From sequence record NC_103192.1: 64,000 bases of DNA; one strand, given 5' to 3'. Source of the stretch: a phage. The translations under genes were made by a program, and so were the position numbers. The notes under the pieces are model-generated. The model was not told the DNA's origin, did no database searches, and saw only the letters and a list, made by a program, of their open reading frames with translations. This document shows positions 46,953 through 61,856 of the stretch, in pieces. How positions within the stretch are numbered: the stretch's first letter is position 1; each line of letters starts with the position of its first letter.

Positions 46953-46988
46953 TAAATAAAAAGGGGCCAAACGGCCCCTTTCTTTTTA
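46953..46988. terminator. bidirectional intrinsic terminator between convergent operons
   Basis: stem AGGGGCC-AAAC-GGCCCCT flanked by an A-run upstream and T-run downstream. Confidence 0.7.
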
Positions 46989-51412: not shown

Positions 51413-52873
51413 TTATTTAGCGTACCCGATCAATTCTACAGTTTTCCCAAAGCTTGGGATATAATTTTTATTATACCCTTCGGTGAGAACCCATAAAGTA
51501 TCGTACTTTTTCCACTTGTTGTCAACAACCTTTTGTTCAAAGTTGTGCTCAAAGTAGAGGTCGGTCAGGACGATGACATCTTTTGCATTTGGTATGTTAG
51601 CGTCCAGATACTCGAACACGCAAGCGGCTGTTGTGCCCCATGTTGAGTGGACCTCGTAGTTGATCATCTCGTCGATGTTCCCGCGAGTGTATACTTTAAC
51701 CTCTCCAACCTCAGTTGACCAACAGAACATCGTAACCTTGAACTCTTTATACAGATTGCACAACCCAGTGATCTCATTGAACATTTTCTTTAAAGTTCTT
51801 TGTGAGATCGATCCAGAAACGTCTAAAGCCACCACAATATCTATAGTGTTTTCCGGATTACGACCAGGAACAACAACGTGCTGATTCTTGTTTATAGCTC
51901 CAACTTTTCGCATTGTGCTGGTCAAAGACCCAGATCGGCGACCAGGTTTTCTGTAGGTTAGTTCAGCCTTTCGTTTAGACAGCATACGTTGCTTAATGAT
52001 GTCTATATAATTGATTACAGGCTTGCCTCTGTTTTTGACAAACTCGCGCACAGCCTCAGGGCAACGACCTCCGGAAGCTTGCATTGCTGCTTCCAACATG
52101 TCACCAGAGTCCTGCATGGCCTGATCTTTATCAGATTGACTGATCACGGGTTGTGGCTGATCATACCCCATAGCCTTTCCAAGATCGTCACTTGTGCCAC
52201 CGTTCCCACTCATGTGATCATCGGTTTGTCGTTTATCTCCTTGAGAGTTCTCGCCTTTACCGTTCTTACTTTTACCACTATTCTGATCTCTTTGCTTATC
52301 AAGAACTGCATAGACGTTCTCAGCAATCCATCCATGGAACCTCATGTCACAGTAGCAACTAGCTAAGAAGCCAAAAGGCTTACCTTTTACGAACGTAGTG
52401 CTTTTCCCCTTCGGAAAGAAAACACAAGGGGGCTTGCTAAAGTCAACCACAAGACCTGTGTTGATAACATGATCACAGGCAATATTGAACAGTTCCGGCT
52501 CAAAGCTTTTACCACGGACCAGATGATCGCAGATAATATGCCCCACTTCATGCGATAGAAGAAAGGCCACCTCTTTCACAGATTTGGGGGAATAGAAAAC
52601 CTCAGCCATCTCAAACTGCTCGTCAGTCAGAGATGCTTTAAGAATGGTTTTGCGCTCATCAGCCAGTCCCATAATGAACTCGGGACTGTAATAAATGCGT
52701 TTATGGTCTGTTGCCATGGTGGAGCACCATGTGTGGTTTTCTACGAACTGCAGCCCTGACAATAGTGTGCCATAAAACGGCAGTTTTTCAAGAAGATACA
52801 TGCGTGCTGCCTGCAGCATTCGCAAGGCGTCATCTTTTTGTGCGGCAATGATTTCTGAACTTCTGCTATCCAT
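51413..52873 (-). CDS. VWA-domain protein with N-terminal HExxH metallopeptidase-like domain
   Basis: zinc motif SHEVGHIICDH; C-terminal MIDAS-like VVALDVSGSIS; ATG 52873 with GGAG RBS (track start 52894 is TTG inside a hairpin). Confidence 0.6.
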   Translation of the reverse strand: MDSRSSEIIAAQKDDALRMLQAARMYLLEKLPFYGTLLSGLQFVENHTWCSTMATDHKRIYYSPEFIMGLADERKTILKASLTDEQFEMAEVFYSPKSVKEVAFLLSHEVGHIICDHLVRGKSFEPELFNIACDHVINTGLVVDFSKPPCVFFPKGKSTTFVKGKPFGFLASCYCDMRFHGWIAENVYAVLDKQRDQNSGKSKNGKGENSQGDKRQTDDHMSGNGGTSDDLGKAMGYDQPQPVISQSDKDQAMQDSGDMLEAAMQASGGRCPEAVREFVKNRGKPVINYIDIIKQRMLSKRKAELTYRKPGRRSGSLTSTMRKVGAINKNQHVVVPGRNPENTIDIVVALDVSGSISQRTLKKMFNEITGLCNLYKEFKVTMFCWSTEVGEVKVYTRGNIDEMINYEVHSTWGTTAACVFEYLDANIPNAKDVIVLTDLYFEHNFEQKVVDNKWKKYDTLWVLTEGYNKNYIPSFGKTVELIGYAK

Positions 52874-52885
52874 TAAAACTCCAGA

Positions 52886-52902
52886 AGGGGCCAACGGCCC
52901 CT
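52886..52902 (-). terminator. hairpin between minus-strand genes (partial terminator/processing site)
   Basis: AGGGGCC-AAC-GGCCCCT inverted repeat with U-run downstream on the minus strand. Confidence 0.35.
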
Positions 52903-52906
52903 GTCA

Positions 52907-53896
52907 TTATTTAACGTGCTTGAAAATACCAGCCAACTCGGTCATTGTCATGCGAGTGGTCTTCATAAGGTCTGTCATAGCCTTCTCCATAATTGGAGAT
53001 ACTACCATAAAGTTACCTTTGGTGAAACCTTTATTCCAGTCGGTCACTAATAACGGTTTAAGTCCTGCCCCGAAACGCTCACCAGTTAAAGCACAGCATT
53101 TTCGAATGTACGTGCTCTTAAATTGGCTGAATGACAGATCAACTTTCATACCTGCATCGTAGAACGTCTGGCAATAGAAAGTGTAGGCTTTAGCAATCTC
53201 AACATCGTCAGGCAGTGCAGGAACCTCTTCTGTAAGCCCTTCTTCGACCTTTTGAGGCTCTTTTTCCTCTTCGTGAGCCTGTTGCGTCATTTCTTCAATC
53301 TCTTCTGTTACAGGCTCATTTACGATGTCAGAAATGTGCTTGTTGGCTTCACGATTAGCCATGAAGTTTTTAAAATCCTGCATTGGTGACATATCTTCCT
53401 CCCATTCTTCGTCAAAGAGTGCCAGTTTATCCTCTTCCGTTCCATATTGCAAGATGAAATCTTCAAAAGTGTAATCACCTTTCAATTTCTCCATGCGCTC
53501 TTCGCTCAGGTGAAGCATCATCTGCTGGACAATTTTTCGATCAGTTTTGTCTTTAATCAAGACTGCGGTCTTTTTATCTACCAGACAGTCCTTCAGGGAG
53601 TTGCACCTTAACCCAACCACACAACAGTTATCAATTGCGTAAGGACCTTCATCATCTATCCGCTCTAAGGATGGATAGAAAGGATTGCCCAACCCGTTTT
53701 CATCTGTGTGCATGTCAAAAGGTATAAGGGTATAGTCGCACACCCCCTCTCCTAAAAGTTTTTTACCAAATAGGAGGTATTCTTCCCATGACAGGTTGAA
53801 CTCTATATCTCGTTTCCGTGCATTATTTTGTTTGCGTCTGTATTTTTTGAGCAGGCGCTCTAACTCTTCTGGTGTATAATATTTTTCAAGATTCAT
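52907..53896 (-). CDS. HNH-like nuclease-domain protein (two Cys-rich modules, acidic linker)
   Basis: segment GVCDYT...HTDENG...SLERIDDEGPYAIDNCCVVGLRCNSLK fits an HNH-like C...N...CxxCN..K pattern; second Cys module near C-terminus; ATG 53896 preferred (53962 is TTG without RBS). Confidence 0.4.
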   Translation of the reverse strand: MNLEKYYTPEELERLLKKYRRKQNNARKRDIEFNLSWEEYLLFGKKLLGEGVCDYTLIPFDMHTDENGLGNPFYPSLERIDDEGPYAIDNCCVVGLRCNSLKDCLVDKKTAVLIKDKTDRKIVQQMMLHLSEERMEKLKGDYTFEDFILQYGTEEDKLALFDEEWEEDMSPMQDFKNFMANREANKHISDIVNEPVTEEIEEMTQQAHEEEKEPQKVEEGLTEEVPALPDDVEIAKAYTFYCQTFYDAGMKVDLSFSQFKSTYIRKCCALTGERFGAGLKPLLVTDWNKGFTKGNFMVVSPIMEKAMTDLMKTTRMTMTELAGIFKHVK

Positions 53897-53927
53897 AAGT
53901 CGTCTCTTGTGCTTTGTAGGTGAAGAA

Positions 53928-53956
53928 ATCTTATCAAGTGCCTCAACAGATGTCAA
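53928..53956 (-). promoter_or_regulatory. leftward promoter TTGACA-17-TAAGAT
   Basis: -35 is reverse complement of 53951-53956, -10 is reverse complement of 53928-53933. Confidence 0.5.
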
Positions 53957-53969
53957 CCTCAAAAACGTG

Positions 53970-53998
53970 TTGACTTTACTCTAAATCCACGATATAGT
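53970..53998 (+). promoter_or_regulatory. rightward promoter TTGACT-17-TATAGT
   Basis: -35 at 53970-53975, -10 at 53993-53998. Confidence 0.5.
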
Positions 53999-54038
53999 GC
54001 ACCCATTCTAAAGAAAACGAACACAGGATCACTTAATC

Positions 54039-54938
54039 ATGTCAAATCTTAACAGCTTTAGCACTCGGTGGAAACAAGATATCACAACCAATCTCTCAGC
54101 AGGGGATATCCTTTCTGCAATTTACGAGGCCTTGGATGATAAAGCTACTTCAAAATCGGTCTGTACCAACCCGCTAATTCCTATAGTAATGAAGGTGATT
54201 GAACGTAGGTTGGTATCCGGATCTGATAAGTGGACATATCTGGATAATGGAGGCCACACTTACTCCAACGGATATGTTGATATAAAAGTGGAATACGCAG
54301 TATCATATCGCCGGAGCGGCTCTGTAACTTTCAACTTCTCTGGTGGTTTCCGATCTCTGGCAACTTCACCTTTTGTTTCCTCAGAGGAGAAGTTTGAACT
54401 TCCGTTCCTTTGGATGATGGCTAACGCGACAGGCAAAACCCCTGTAAGCATTCGCGTAAAATACAACTACAACGGATCTAGTAAGATCTATGCCGAGAGT
54501 GTCTCAGCAAGTTTTTATTTTGTGATGGGAGATGGAATCCTCAAACATATAAAGATGTGTGATATGCATGATGTTATAAATGAAGTAACTGATAAGAATG
54601 TTCTAGTAAAAGACCTCAACAATTTTTATACACCTGGAGACTATTACGTCAACCGTCCACTGTGCATCTTTAATGCCGCACACCCTTTAGGTGAGTATTT
54701 GATCGCCAATAGCGATATTGCCAATAACCGCTTCGAGGTAGCAAGAGTACAGAATGAGGTGTTGACATCTTGCAAGAGTGGTGATAAGTTTACCGAAGAA
54801 GAGATGAGTGTTTTAGAAATGATGGGATATAAGTGTAGCCTTTGGGTAGATGAGGTGTTTAATGACGGCATCTATGGACAGGATATTTACCCGTTAAAGA
54901 AGTATACTGATTCCAGTTTAATTTACGCGGAGATTTGA
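54039..54938 (+). CDS. hypothetical protein
   Basis: 299 aa, first gene of the rightward operon. Confidence 0.45.
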   Translation: MSNLNSFSTRWKQDITTNLSAGDILSAIYEALDDKATSKSVCTNPLIPIVMKVIERRLVSGSDKWTYLDNGGHTYSNGYVDIKVEYAVSYRRSGSVTFNFSGGFRSLATSPFVSSEEKFELPFLWMMANATGKTPVSIRVKYNYNGSSKIYAESVSASFYFVMGDGILKHIKMCDMHDVINEVTDKNVLVKDLNNFYTPGDYYVNRPLCIFNAAHPLGEYLIANSDIANNRFEVARVQNEVLTSCKSGDKFTEEEMSVLEMMGYKCSLWVDEVFNDGIYGQDIYPLKKYTDSSLIYAEI

Positions 54939-54940
54939 CT

Positions 54941-55213
54941 ATGATGAAGTCATGTGGTAGTGTATATTATGTTGGTGAGGATGTTCAGGCAGATAGTGTG
55001 TGGAAATCCATTAAGTCCACCACCGACGATGCCTTCTTGAGCGGGTTATGTTTCCCCAATCCAGGAGACATTCTCCCTCACCCTGGAGATTTTGTTGTCA
55101 ACAAGACGGACGGTTATACCGTGTGCCTGATGGTTGAAAAAATCTTTTTAGACACTAGACACAATCACCGTCTTGTGCTAAAATTTCAAGAATGTAAAAT
55201 GACAGTTGCCTAA
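54941..55213 (+). CDS. hypothetical protein
   Basis: ATG 54941 with GGAGA RBS (track start 54935 is TTG). Confidence 0.35.
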   Translation: MMKSCGSVYYVGEDVQADSVWKSIKSTTDDAFLSGLCFPNPGDILPHPGDFVVNKTDGYTVCLMVEKIFLDTRHNHRLVLKFQECKMTVA

Positions 55214-57730: not shown

Positions 57731-58111
57731 ATGGCTAAAGTAGGTAAGCGGGGAAACTACCTGGTGGTATTGACCGAGGAGCCGGAGAAGGAGTACGAAT
57801 GCAGCTCCACTTGCGTGATCGATATCCGAGAAAAAGATGTAGATGAAATCTGGTTTAAAATATTGGACGCTTGCGATAGCAGTGATTATTTCTTCATCTA
57901 TGTCAACGATAAGGCTGGGTTCTTCCATGACGACGGAGAGTTGCCGTATGAAATCTATGAACTTGTAGAGGCTTGCCATCGTGGAGATGCGGAGTTATTT
58001 GGCTTACGGCTGAAAAGCGGTAAATTCTTCTACCAAGACGAGTGCATGAATCTTCACAACTTCGTAGAGGGAACTTGCAACGATGGAGAGATTTTGGCAC
58101 ACTACGACTAA
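57731..58111 (+). CDS. hypothetical Cys-containing acidic protein
   Basis: 126 aa, AGGGGG RBS. Confidence 0.4.
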   Translation: MAKVGKRGNYLVVLTEEPEKEYECSSTCVIDIREKDVDEIWFKILDACDSSDYFFIYVNDKAGFFHDDGELPYEIYELVEACHRGDAELFGLRLKSGKFFYQDECMNLHNFVEGTCNDGEILAHYD

Positions 58112-58123
58112 TTTCTAAGACCA

Positions 58124-58151
58124 CCCCCGCTTCGGCGGGGATTTTCTATTT
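58124..58151 (+). terminator. rho-independent terminator with UUCG tetraloop
   Basis: CCCCCGC-TTCG-GCGGGG then ATTTTCTATTT. Confidence 0.7.
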
Positions 58152-58160
58152 GGAGCTATT

Positions 58161-58661
58161 GTGAAAATTAAAATCTTTGCTATTATTTTGAGCGCATTTT
58201 TATCGCTGCCTGTTGTTGCAGCACCCAAACAAAAAGTATATCACACCTGCAAGCCATCGGATACTAAGGAGAACATTCTGGCATGCAATATCTACAGGGA
58301 AGCCAGAGGAGATGGCACGATGGGTATGCTGGCATCAGGGTTTGCCACACTAAACAGGAAATCTCACCCCAAATACCCGGACACCATAAGAAAGATTGTC
58401 TACCAACCTAACCAGTTTTCGTGGACAAACCACGGCAAAACTTTTAAGGTGACAGAAAAAGATTCATGGGATCACGCTAAAAGTCTTGCAAAGATGCTTC
58501 TAAAGGTCTATAATAACAACCATGTTGCATACATGGCTATGGATATAACAGGTGGAGCAACGCACTATCATACAACAAAAGTACGACCGAAATGGGCAAA
58601 AAAGATGCAGAGGACAGCTCAATTCGGGAGTCATATCTACTACAAGGAGCGCAATAAATGA
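58161..58661 (+). CDS. secreted SleB-like cell wall hydrolase (endolysin candidate)
   Basis: N-terminal signal-peptide-like MKIKIFAIILSAFLSLPVVAAP; core NIYREARGDG...ATLNR...PDTIRKIVYQPNQFSW fits the Hydrolase_2 (SleB) pattern. Confidence 0.6.
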   Translation: MKIKIFAIILSAFLSLPVVAAPKQKVYHTCKPSDTKENILACNIYREARGDGTMGMLASGFATLNRKSHPKYPDTIRKIVYQPNQFSWTNHGKTFKVTEKDSWDHAKSLAKMLLKVYNNNHVAYMAMDITGGATHYHTTKVRPKWAKKMQRTAQFGSHIYYKERNK

Positions 58662-60640
58662 TTGTAAACAGTAATGAAACTAAAGCAGTACTAACCGGAA
58701 ATATGGAGGTCACCAGGGGCTCAATTTCTCTGAACAAAGAGACTTTTGGGCTAATCATTAAAGGGATTTACGAAGATAAGGTGCTGGCAAGCTGCCGTGA
58801 ACCAATCTTCAATGCCGTGGACTCCCATGTTGAGTCTGGACGAGGTGATGTACCGATCATTATTCACTCTCCTACAGACCTTGAACCATACTTCTTTGTG
58901 CAGGACGTTGGATTGGGCATGTCAGAAGAGATGGTCCGCAACACTTTCATGAACCTCGGGGAGTCAACCAAGCGCAACAGCAACGCTCTGGTAGGTAATA
59001 AAGGTGTAGGTTCAAAGGCCCCGTTCAGCATGGTGGACACTTTCGATGTGATCAGTGTGCACAACGGTGTTGAAAGCACATATCTGTTGTTCTTGGATCA
59101 GGGTATCCCAAACGTTACCAAGATCCGCGAGCGGAAGACTGAAGAGCACAACGGGGTAAAAGTTCAGTTCCATGTTAAGAAAGAGCATGTCCTGAAATAT
59201 CGCACTGCTATTGCATCGTGCTTACGCTATGCGAAGTTTCCGTTCACCGTCACCGACCCTATGACCAGTAAAATGCTGGAAGGTGACAAGGTTGAGGCGC
59301 AGTATCACTACGAGAAAGATGGTTGGAAAATGACTATCCTAAAGGGCTATACCAGCTCTGACGAGAGTCGTGTGGTAATGGGGCACCAACCTTACCGATC
59401 TAAATTTCTGGAAACATTGACAGACTACCCTGCAATCTGTGTAGAGATCCCTATCGGGGATTGCAATATTAACCCAGGGCGTGAATGGACTATAGAGGGT
59501 CACGACGATGGTGGATTCCAAGAGCGTCTGGAGGCTTTTGTCAAAGAGGGTATCCGCCTACGTGGGGCAGAAGTTGTTGCGGAATTAGAGACAGCAAAAA
59601 CATCCTCAGAAGCACGCGAGATGATGAAGAACAGTGGAGTGTTCGGGCACATCTTCGGTAAAAATTTTATGTGGGAACGATGGGAAGAGACAGGACTAGG
59701 AAGCTTGGGAGATTGCGAGATCTTCGCTGGCGGCTTAAATAAAGGCCGTATAGGTTACGCCTGCTACGGAAAGGTAGAATTCTTACGGGGAGTCTATTTA
59801 GTATTTAACGACGGAGACGGCAAATATAACCGAAATAAGTGTAACTACTTAAGCGAGATCACCGGACGCAACGTTTTCTATTGCCGAAACACGGATCTGG
59901 TGAAAGAGTTTAAAGAGGCGGCACACCATCCTTTCTTTGCAGATACGGTCAAATTGTTATCAGAGCTCCCTCGCCGACCTGCGAAGAAAGGTGAAACAAA
60001 AACTCATTATGAGCCAGGCTATTGGGTTAAAAAACTTGAGAAGGATGGTTACTTCCGTCGTGAGCGTATTACTAAGGCAGAGTTCAAGAAGATTAAGCAC
60101 TGCATTCCTTATGAGGGTGATATCCAACGTGGAAGTTGTTGGCTGGGACAGCTAAGTAACATCTACCAGCAAAATTATGACCGTGTGCGTGCGGCACTCC
60201 AGATTCCTGAAGGGGAAGATCTGTACCTGGTATCAGAATCTCGTCTGCTTTGGACTGATCCTGATTGCCAGTATGTTACAGAGAAAAATGTGGAACATTT
60301 GTTGAAAGAGGACGCCTGGAAATTCTTACTGACTCGCGCAGCAAATGAAACTTCATATGACAGCCTGTATAGACAATTAGGGAAAATTATCCCCATGCAA
60401 GATTTTGGAAATTATCGGCCACATTTTCACAAGTGGGAAGGTAACACCGCGTGGAAGCACAGTGAGCTAAATCATCGTGCCAAAATCTTAATCGCCAACC
60501 GAGTCAAGTGCGGGAAGGCCTATATTGCAAGATTGGAAAAGAAATATCCACTTTTGAAGCATGTGGGCTTGAAATATTGGGACACTCCTGCTATGATTGA
60601 ATACCGTGAACTGATCGACGCAAAGAATAACACCAAATAA
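58658..60640 (+). CDS. rIIA: rIIA-like protein with N-terminal GHKL-type ATPase fold
   Basis: 660 aa; N-box-like EPIFNAVDS, G1-like FVQDVGLGM, G2-like GNKGVGSKAPF; ATGA overlap with upstream gene. Confidence 0.55.
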   Translation: MIVNSNETKAVLTGNMEVTRGSISLNKETFGLIIKGIYEDKVLASCREPIFNAVDSHVESGRGDVPIIIHSPTDLEPYFFVQDVGLGMSEEMVRNTFMNLGESTKRNSNALVGNKGVGSKAPFSMVDTFDVISVHNGVESTYLLFLDQGIPNVTKIRERKTEEHNGVKVQFHVKKEHVLKYRTAIASCLRYAKFPFTVTDPMTSKMLEGDKVEAQYHYEKDGWKMTILKGYTSSDESRVVMGHQPYRSKFLETLTDYPAICVEIPIGDCNINPGREWTIEGHDDGGFQERLEAFVKEGIRLRGAEVVAELETAKTSSEAREMMKNSGVFGHIFGKNFMWERWEETGLGSLGDCEIFAGGLNKGRIGYACYGKVEFLRGVYLVFNDGDGKYNRNKCNYLSEITGRNVFYCRNTDLVKEFKEAAHHPFFADTVKLLSELPRRPAKKGETKTHYEPGYWVKKLEKDGYFRRERITKAEFKKIKHCIPYEGDIQRGSCWLGQLSNIYQQNYDRVRAALQIPEGEDLYLVSESRLLWTDPDCQYVTEKNVEHLLKEDAWKFLLTRAANETSYDSLYRQLGKIIPMQDFGNYRPHFHKWEGNTAWKHSELNHRAKILIANRVKCGKAYIARLEKKYPLLKHVGLKYWDTPAMIEYRELIDAKNNTK

Positions 60641-60650
60641 GGAGACAGCT

Positions 60651-61856
60651 ATGATTTTCATCTACGAACATTTCAAAACTCGTAAAGAAGCACGTGACCG
60701 CCGTGCAGAGCTTGAGAAGAAGGGTTTCACATGCGCTATTGAGAAAGGTAACACAACCTGGACACTGGCAGTGGGTGCCCCAGAGTTGTTCGATCCTGAC
60801 CGTGACAGCGTCTGCTACACCCGTGAGGATTTTGAAACCCGTGAAGAGGCCCGTTTATTTCGATATGGGCTGGAAGATAACGGTAAGTACGCCATGATCT
60901 TAGACTTAGGAGAAGGTTCCGTTAAACGTTGGGGCGTGGTATATCCGCTGTGTGTTGTTCACGGTGTAGGGTTCACTGGGGTAGCAATCAAGTCAGAAGA
61001 ACCTTTAGTAGAAGTAAAAGACCCGGTGCTGGAGGTGGTGAGCAGTGTGTCTCAGCAACAGACCCGAAGCATCGAGCCTTTGGTGGTTATTTGCGGAGAA
61101 CTCCTCCAGATCACCTGTAACGAAGGCATTTTTGAAATTCGCCGCAGTGAAAGTGAGGAAGTTTACCAGAAAGTTTTCGACCATATCTCTGTTCAGGAAT
61201 ATGATGAGGCAATTGGTGAAATCCTTGTCTGGCTGGAACGCAAGAATGAGTTCACCACACTTGCAGACAACCTGATCATGAAAGATGGCAAGCTCTACTA
61301 CTACGGTGTAGAGATGCGATCCACCATTGCAAAGAAAATTGAGAAAGATTATGCAGATGGAACACTGGATGACCGCTATGTGAAATTCCTCGTTCGCCTG
61401 CTACGCAATCCTTCTGCAAAATCTGTAAACATGCTCTACGATTTTATGCAGGCCAACGATATCCAGATTGCAGAAGATGGTCGAATCATTTGCTACAAAG
61501 GGGTTCAGTTTAACGGCAGCAAATGGGTGGATTGGCACAGTGGTAAAGTTCCACAATACCAGGGTGCTTTTGTATCCATGCCTCGTAACTTTGTAGAGGA
61601 TGATCCGGAAGCTGCGTGCTCCTATGGCTTACACTGCGCCAGCAAAGAGTATGCAAAGAGCTACGGCACTGTAATGATGGTTATGGTTGATCCTGCAGAT
61701 GTGGTTAGTGTGCCATACCAACACAATAGCGCTAAGTGCCGTGCATGCCGCTATGAGATTGTGGTAGCTCCGGAAGCACGCAAAGATGGAGACCCTATCG
61801 AATATGTAGTTGATCGTGACGGTAACACTATCGACATTCTTTACGAGGAGGCGTAA
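60651..61856 (+). CDS. rIIB: rIIB-like protein
   Basis: 401 aa; C-terminal region (LYDFMQANDIQIAEDG...GLHCASKEYAKSYG...VMVDPADVVSVPYQHNSAKCRACRYEIVV) resembles the conserved rIIB core as recalled from T4; adjacent to rIIA-like gene. Confidence 0.55.
   Translation: MIFIYEHFKTRKEARDRRAELEKKGFTCAIEKGNTTWTLAVGAPELFDPDRDSVCYTREDFETREEARLFRYGLEDNGKYAMILDLGEGSVKRWGVVYPLCVVHGVGFTGVAIKSEEPLVEVKDPVLEVVSSVSQQQTRSIEPLVVICGELLQITCNEGIFEIRRSESEEVYQKVFDHISVQEYDEAIGEILVWLERKNEFTTLADNLIMKDGKLYYYGVEMRSTIAKKIEKDYADGTLDDRYVKFLVRLLRNPSAKSVNMLYDFMQANDIQIAEDGRIICYKGVQFNGSKWVDWHSGKVPQYQGAFVSMPRNFVEDDPEAACSYGLHCASKEYAKSYGTVMMVMVDPADVVSVPYQHNSAKCRACRYEIVVAPEARKDGDPIEYVVDRDGNTIDILYEEA

Follow-up and report, generated by a model that had tools for sequence, protein, structure and literature searches.

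According to published work on PacI, this restriction endonuclease is the type member of a rare His-Me finger group that has no catalytic histidine and uses a tyrosine of the omega-loop instead. It has a single metal, for which one Asp and one Asn act as ligands, and Arg93, Tyr100 and His42 are cited as catalytic residues. The His-Me finger of the yeast protein Tcd is zinc-less, inactive and binds tRNA. Coliphage T4 encodes the protein Srd, which is reported to bind RNase E at its N-terminal, catalytic half and to stimulate host mRNA decay. A function of Srd as a sigma decoy, linked with a 'similarity with rpoD', has only ever been postulated. The effect of Srd is said to disappear in RNase E-defective cells.

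The rV5/FV3 Vequintaviruses are a large group of coliphages in wide use and are common in phage-therapy and biocontrol collections. The early leftward unit of phage rV5 comprises genes 11-26, and the product of the first of these, gp11, was described as a probable Srd homologue (Kropinski et al., 2013). The GenBank label of rV5 ORF 11 reads 'anti-sigma factor; Srd-like protein', and its Srd-like annotation dates from 2013. No relevant publication came up when the literature was searched for transcriptomics of Vequintavirus early genes or for functional data on gp11.

Here we analysed the counterpart of this gene in a 64,000-nucleotide stretch of phage DNA (sequence record NC_103192.1, hereafter the window). 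The open reading frame is intact on the minus strand at 52907-53896, from an ATG at 53896 to a TAA stop at 52909-52907, and encodes 329 amino acids. The surrounding region (52000-55000) shares 96-97% identity with Escherichia phages YP-6 and FV3 and 90-95% with about 110 further rV5-like phages (Vequintavirus). The gene is a homologue of rV5 gp11 (ORF 11) and represents the conserved gene at the head of the early genes in a Vequintavirus. Using tblastn, we found a homologue in at least 212 phage records, with a query coverage of at least 80% in 208 of the 212. These records name the product 'anti-sigma factor', 'HNH endonuclease', 'anti-termination' protein or 'hypothetical protein', and one metagenomic cluster of the family carries the name 'type II restriction endonuclease'; apart from 'hypothetical protein', these are four incompatible database names for a gene that opens the early programme of the rV5/FV3 Vequintaviruses.

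As in rV5, the gene is the first of the leftward early unit. The next gene downstream (ATG at 52873, with GGAG ahead) encodes a DUF2201 metallopeptidase/VWA protein according to Pfam, and a GC-rich hairpin, AGGGGCC-AAC-GGCCCCT (52886-52902), stands between the two. Its core, GGGGCC...GGCCCC, recurs in a terminator-like hairpin at 46960-46981, which probably ends the early leftward operon. The position of the gene is preserved in distant relatives: Klebsiella phage KpS8 (Mydovirus) has a homologue of approximately 37% identity at the same divergent-promoter position, with a MoxR-type ATPase on the other arm, and the place at the head of the early operon is constant across Vequintavirinae genera at identities of 37-98%.

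Directly upstream of the gene we located a sigma70-like early promoter on the minus strand (53928-53956), with TTGACA at 53956-53951, a 17-nt spacer and TAAGAT at 53933-53928 preceded by TG (TTGACA-17 nt-TG-n-TAAGAT). It matches the consensus at 10 of 12 positions in a consensus scan and was graded strong, in agreement with the original prediction that this is the first gene transcribed from a leftward promoter. It stands back-to-back with a rightward promoter at 53970-53998 and is also kept in rV5, where it is annotated as P11 and where the counterpart arrangement is a bidirectional promoter pair (Kropinski et al., 2013).

The start codon had also been predicted to be ambiguous, and the databases do use three different starts: an upstream TTG (346-aa entries), the ATG (325-aa entries) and an internal TTG at codon 15 (the rV5 GenBank record). 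In rV5 the same ATG exists 42 nt upstream of the annotated internal TTG. The upstream in-frame TTG of the window (53960-53962, minus strand), which opens a mechanical ORF of 351 aa, is located 4 nt upstream of the -35 hexamer and therefore off the transcript of the leftward promoter, so it was rejected as a start. Between the predicted transcription start, at about 53921, and the ATG at 53896 there is no in-frame ATG, GTG or TTG. The N-termini of homologues at 38-63% identity fall within 0-6 residues of the Met encoded at 53896, and in those of 57-63% identity residues 3-14 are kept at the protein level. Given a TTG outside the transcript, no start codon in between and the agreement of the homologue N-termini, we infer that the ATG at 53896 is the best call for the start.

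The protein can be divided into two modules of the same fold that are separated by a helical connector and a highly acidic linker, the architecture that had been proposed from the DNA. Module 1 (aa 15-112; 53561-53854, minus strand) carries a basic alpha-1 helix and the residues C53, E78, R79, D81, Y86, N90, N99 and K102, and is followed by the connector (aa 113-148; 53453-53560, minus strand), with helices at 117-129, 132-138 and 144-151. The linker (aa 149-228; 53213-53452, minus strand) is mostly disordered and variable in length, being shortened or deleted in homologues of 265-306 aa; it contains 25 Asp and Glu against 6 Lys and Arg, giving a net charge of -19 and a pI of 4.05. Module 2 (aa 229-329; 52910-53212, minus strand) is a degenerate duplicate of module 1 that shows the same fold, without the catalytic-type residues and the basic helix; of the two alpha-1 helices only the one in module 1, with a net charge of +6 over aa 11-30, is strongly basic. 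Profile-profile comparison with hhalign identified the two modules as homologous (aa 15-112 against aa 228-329, probability 96.7%, E = 4.6e-10, 73 aligned columns). Compared directly by BLASTP, the two copies are too diverged to give a match, and the duplication is visible only by profile-profile comparison.

The predicted structure consists of two folded parts, aa 1-160 (pLDDT above about 89) and aa 228-320 (approximately 89-96). AlphaFold models reach a pLDDT of 83 for the whole protein and 89 for module 2; within the predicted model the values are 86-97 in module 1, 89-93 in the connector and below 50 at linker residues 184-224. With a pTM of 0.52 for the whole protein, the relative placement of the two modules is unsupported by the model.

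Both modules display the His-Me finger (beta-beta-alpha-metal, HNH-superfamily) fold, and for each of them the nearest solved structure is PacI. Foldseek against the PDB with the full model returned PacI as the best match (probability 1.00, E = 0.046), with Cas9 HNH domains next, and the PDB structural matches of the models comprise PacI, Cas9 HNH, DraIII, McrA, TagI, Hpy99I and EndoVII. The relationship to PacI is also detectable at the sequence level: a module 1 profile built from 168 relatives matched the PacI sequence with 24 bits and E = 2.8e-4, scaled to PDB size, whereas a 31-sequence family profile gave a weaker match (E = 0.22). PacI was the sole PDB sequence matched by the family profile.

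The original prediction of HNH-like segments holds for the fold of both modules and fails for the curated HNH profiles, with the general-base His and the zinc site missing. The HMM search for HNH families that had been proposed as a check was negative, as no Pfam or NCBIfam HNH-type model matched the whole protein (E <= 10) or either module (E <= 1). The same models did not match T4 Srd or distant single-domain relatives either, and among HNH-labelled families only a PHROG named 'HNH endonuclease' matched the protein. Weak matches to DUF3276, DUF406 and LipDrop all fell on the acidic low-complexity linker and were discounted. None of the five His residues of the protein is conserved, so a literal H-N-H motif is absent. 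The position of the general-base His, at the end of strand beta-1, is taken by Arg79 in 168 of 168 relatives; the structural Asn and the Asn/His metal-ligand position of the helix are present in module 1, and module 2 keeps only the structural N295. An exhaustive profile search showed that this domain type matches 11,651 cluster representatives at E <= 1e-3, 493 at E <= 1e-10 and 75 at E <= 1e-30, and despite these more than 11,000 matching protein clusters there is no Pfam model for it. The protein combines two copies of a His-Me finger of the PacI type, now diverged, which belong to the histidine-less branch of the HNH superfamily.

Conservation was evaluated on the 168 sequences with the module 1-module 2 architecture found among 188 proteins plus the window protein, with identities down to approximately 20%. 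The PacI stretch V-D92-R93-S-D...G-Y100...Q-N104...C-N113-R-I-K116 aligns with L-E78-R79-I-D81...P-Y86...D-N90...C-N99-S-L-K102 of module 1, which pairs Asp92 with E78, Arg93 with R79, Tyr100 with Y86 and Asn113 with N99. In PacI these four positions serve in holding the catalytic metal and in the attack on the phosphodiester; N90 and K102 count as structural. R79, Y86 and N90 are each invariant (168/168), and position 78 is Glu or Asp in every sequence (168/168). K102 is kept in 164 of the 168. N99 is present in 163, and the remaining five have His there; an Asn/His exchange at the metal-ligand position is the classic HNH/HNN swap. The equivalent positions of module 2 are hydrophobic or variable (283 F/L/Y/W, 284 V/I/L, 291 V/F/I/L, 304 Q/E/A/G/K/R and 307 L/M), and only the structural C268, D286 and N295 are retained there. 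This contrast within one protein separates fold-maintaining from site-specific residues, and it argues for a selected metal/phosphate site in module 1 where PacI has its active site, and for module 2 being a catalytically dead copy.

The cysteines deserve separate comment, since both segments had been described as Cys-rich. This is an overstatement: there are 8 Cys in 329 aa, of which only C53 (166 of 168 relatives) and its module 2 counterpart C268 (155 of 168) are conserved. Neither module contains a CxxC...CxxC zinc site. Residues C63, C66, C109 and C112 of PacI, which we take to be one of its two zinc sites from the usual CxxC...CxxC pattern, align with C53, T56, G95 and C98, and only C53 is conserved in the family; no further conserved Cys is present in the family to form a second PacI-type Cys4 site. 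The Cys residues of the protein do not act as zinc ligands. PacI H42 aligns with Ile31, in a stretch where the alignment is less certain, and R29, two residues before Ile31, is kept in 158 of the 168 relatives.

The relationship to T4 Srd was assessed by several methods. BLASTP with T4 Srd (NP_049634) gave E = 1e-7 for module 1 and a weaker 2e-4 for module 2, both onto Srd aa 4-90. HMM searches placed module 1 on Srd 11-88 (E = 1.6e-19) and module 2 on that same N-terminal stretch (2e-9), not on the Srd C-terminus. For a comparison of families, 15 Srd sequences with identities down to 31% were aligned, and hhalign matched the gp11 family to this alignment with a probability of 98.3% and E = 1.2e-14, aa 12-104 falling onto Srd 8-90. 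The helical connector is partly alignable as well, up to about aa 133. Srd aa 91-248 showed no alignment to the protein in either HMM search or hhalign. By eye, the Srd C-terminus could be read as a degenerate module 2 ('YDMCDKII...NLSFIDKLKLKRG' resembling 'YTFYCQTF...DLSFSQFKSTYIRK'); this idea had no HMM or hhalign support and was dropped.

Structural and family-level comparisons gave a similar extent. With BFVD models of T4-type Srd (phages 133 and Acj9) the match extends over no more than 93-96 columns, and the BFVD matches also include giant-virus 'HNH' proteins, which are known relatives of PacI. PHROG Srd families match the protein at E = 1e-12 to 1e-13. Invariant in the Srd family are E64, R65, Y72, N76 and N85, the same PacI-type positions. 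By these comparisons the protein is a superfamily relative of T4 Srd and not an orthologue, because only the N-terminal domain of Srd, some 85-95 residues, is shared. Because T4 Srd has this same type of domain as its conserved core, a common basic chemistry of the two proteins is probable.

As an explanation for these observations we tentatively favour an early host-takeover nuclease or nickase, metal-dependent and carrying a dead partner domain. Such a protein would be made immediately after infection from the host sigma70 promoter, and its copy 1 would act on nucleic acid. The dead copy 2 could take the place, within the same chain, of the second subunit in a PacI-like dimer, or act as a docking domain, and the acidic linker would provide a flexible spacer. 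Its role would lie in the takeover of the host, through damage to or turnover of host nucleic acid, and not in packaging, homing or sigma-factor sequestration. We counted in favour of nuclease activity the structural and sequence matches to PacI, the conserved constellation and its invariance in the T4 Srd family, module 2 as an internal control, the basic alpha-1 helix as a nucleic-acid binding surface, the early promoter and the fixed genomic position. Counted against it were the missing PacI-type Cys4 zinc sites and the presence of Ile31 at the His42 position, together with T4 Srd, the only characterised relative, which is reported to bind and stimulate RNase E and for which no intrinsic nuclease activity is reported. 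Phage DNA, moreover, would also be endangered by an unspecific early DNase. Against the pseudo-dimer idea in particular we counted the interdomain geometry, which the model (pTM 0.52) does not support.

The main rival is that the protein works like Srd itself, as a non-catalytic host factor that would bind RNase E at its catalytic N-terminal half, perhaps along with RNA, and speed up early host mRNA decay. The conserved site of module 1 would then bind RNA and have no part in cleavage, for which yeast Tcd is a precedent. The homology of module 1 to the Srd N-terminal core and the PHROG Srd matches agree with this, as do the activity reported for Srd, the early expression of both genes in large lytic E. 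coli myoviruses and the naming of rV5 gp11 as a probable Srd homologue by Kropinski et al. (2013). However, the homology is limited to some 85-95 residues of a very widespread domain, Srd residues 91-248 are without a counterpart in the protein, and PHROGs named 'endonuclease' match as well as the Srd PHROGs do. In addition, the strict Tyr/Arg/Asn invariance and the Asn-to-His swap look more catalytic than binding. We regard an RNase E activator of this kind as possible, albeit doubtful, and it can hold together with the nuclease that we favour. A more far-reaching proposal, which we judge unlikely, is that the entire Srd superfamily, T4 Srd included, consists of cryptic metal-dependent Tyr-type His-Me enzymes, and that the active and dead copies of the Vequintaviruses would form a pseudo-dimer that nicks host nucleic acid, and does not cut it, as the first act of host shut-off. 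If this were true, an enzymatic activity would underlie the phenotype for which T4 Srd is called an 'RNase E activator', and that phenotype would have to be reinterpreted accordingly.

The current GenBank label implies yet another function, that of an anti-sigma factor or of a decoy for sigma70/sigmaS by which transcription would be switched. Many records carry this label, which goes back to the T4 srd name; nevertheless, we found no match to a sigma-70 region or an anti-sigma Pfam model in the protein and no sigma-70 match in T4 Srd, the structural neighbours are nucleases, and the decoy was only ever postulated, while the one experimental study of Srd is reported to point to RNase E instead. 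We consider this function very improbable, and we are equally sceptical of a free-standing selfish homing endonuclease. The HNH-superfamily fold and the many single-domain phage relatives annotated as HNH endonucleases would be compatible with homing, but the constant divergent-promoter position argues against a mobile element: the gene opens the early operon in a fixed syntenic place from genus to genus of the Vequintavirinae (37-98% identity), and 208 of 212 matches cover at least 80% of the query, with no sporadic presence and absence and no insertion into a host gene. Nor did we see close relatives precisely missing the gene with a cleavable site at the empty locus. The original prediction had offered a packaging-associated HNH as an alternative to a nuclease acting on host DNA. 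Such an HNH, which would assist the terminase, has the fold alone in its favour and is refuted by the genomic context, as the terminase belongs to a distant, late and oppositely organised unit. Its C-terminus (Terminase_6C) is encoded at 1-786 of the window, 52 kb from the gene, and on the rV5 map the terminase (58-60.9 kb) and gp11 (6.7 kb) are 51 kb apart. The protein also lacks two features that are usual in such enzymes, the canonical His and the (CxxC)2 zinc site, and we assign packaging a negligible probability.

The gene itself and its 'Srd-like' and 'HNH' labels in databases are already known. The assignment to the histidine-less PacI type, the internal duplication with one dead copy and the observation that the T4 Srd core keeps the same catalytic-type constellation all appear not to have been described in the literature that we searched. 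The labels 'anti-sigma factor' and 'HNH endonuclease' are weakly founded, because the protein shares only a nuclease fold with T4 Srd. Placing it as a tandem PacI-type protein, with one active-like and one dead copy, replaces these labels with a testable biochemical hypothesis, and the location of the T4 Srd core in a histidine-less nuclease branch with an intact catalytic-type constellation bears on how Srd stimulates RNase E. Overall, the result is a modest refinement of an already catalogued family and no major surprise, the gene being otherwise ordinary.

Compared with known systems, the protein is clearly set apart from the canonical HNH and endonuclease VII enzymes (Pfam HNH, HNH_3, HNH_5 and Endonuclease_7; T4 gp49, Cas9 HNH, Hpy99I and the phage GVE2 HNH), as it has Arg79 in place of the general-base His and lacks the (CxxC)2 zinc site. 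[quoted passage not shown] With T4 Srd it has in common the N-terminal domain, the E-R/Y/N/N residues and an origin as an early gene of a lytic coliphage, while the last 160 residues of Srd, at its C-terminus, bear no relation to the connector, linker and module 2 described here. The best structural match to both modules remains PacI (PDB 3LDY/3M7K; group 20 of the His-Me finger classification), which shares with module 1 the histidine-less pattern D/E-R ... G/P-Y ... N ... N-x-x-K, whose Tyr lies in the omega-loop. PacI is a restriction enzyme that cuts double-stranded DNA sequence-specifically as a homodimer, whereas the protein studied here is the product of a phage early gene. The homodimer of PacI is built from single-domain subunits, with two Cys4 zinc sites and His42; in the phage protein the domain is duplicated within one chain and the second copy is inactivated. 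This tandem of an active-like and a dead copy suggests a stoichiometry different from that of the PacI homodimer.

The gene that follows the gp11 homologue in the leftward operon lies at 51413-52873 (-), and Pfam assigns to its product both a DUF2201_N putative metallopeptidase domain (E = 5.5e-28) and a DUF2201 VWA-like domain (E = 6.5e-11). The PHROG to which this gene belongs, phrog_1314, is named 'HNH endonuclease', and through it the same name is carried by RefSeq records such as those of the Klebsiella phage KpS8 and of FV3; on the DUF2201 gene it looks like a propagated mis-annotation. The usual partner of VWA proteins such as the DUF2201 product is a MoxR-type ATPase, and an ATPase of this type is found in the other arm both in rV5 (ORF 4) and in KpS8. 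Translation of the DUF2201 gene likely starts at the ATG at 52873 and not at the TTG at 52894 given in the ORF list; a GGAG motif is located upstream of this ATG, and the rV5 annotation agrees with it as the start.

The 33-nt gap between the stop codon of the gp11 homologue and the start of the DUF2201 gene harbors a GC-rich hairpin, AGGGGCC-AAC-GGCCCCT (52886-52902). A stronger terminator-like hairpin, AAAGGGGCC-AAAC-GGCCCCTTT, is located at 46960-46981 and probably ends the leftward operon. Both hairpins have the GGGGCC...GGCCCC core in common, and the one at 52886-52902 could be an attenuator, an element for mRNA stabilization or processing, or a repeated terminator module.

In rV5-like records, the first rightward gene (54039-54938, +), which is divergent from the gp11 homologue, is labelled 'putative alpha 1-3 fucosyltransferase', and the KpS8 gene in the equivalent position is labelled thymidylate kinase. 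A Pfam search with its product gave no match, the product belongs to phrog_12338, a family of unknown function, and the only named PHROG matched was a weak 'thymidylate kinase' (E = 0.015). The annotations of this gene and of its position equivalents are mutually inconsistent and poorly supported. With regard to the terminase locus, the annotation of rV5 assembles the large-subunit gene (58027-60872; 45028-47873 in L005) from three segments and places in it, as an interruption, ORF 65, labelled 'HNH homing endonuclease'. The left edge of the window falls inside the C-terminal part of the terminase (Terminase_6C), which occupies positions 1-786.

Sixteen unannotated GenBank records (MG0656xx) are titled 'Campylobacter phage', with C. 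jejuni given as the host. They are approximately 95% identical to the gp11 region of this E. coli Vequintavirus, and are probably mislabelled or contaminant genomes.

Two metagenomic proteins, P0138 (852 residues) and P0167 (827 residues), each contain four tandem, active-like domains of the module 1 type, and giant-virus proteins also match over approximately 300 columns; therefore, multimerization of this PacI-type domain within a single chain is recurrent. In the distant single-domain relatives P0045 and P0047, sub-threshold matches to sigma-70 region 4 / HTH (E = 7e-4 and 0.02) are positioned N-terminal to the PacI-type domain, and may be relevant to 'similarity with rpoD', the historical name of the T4 RNase E activator Srd. 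These sub-threshold matches are reminiscent of PacI itself, for which an HTH-like N-terminal domain has been described in the literature.
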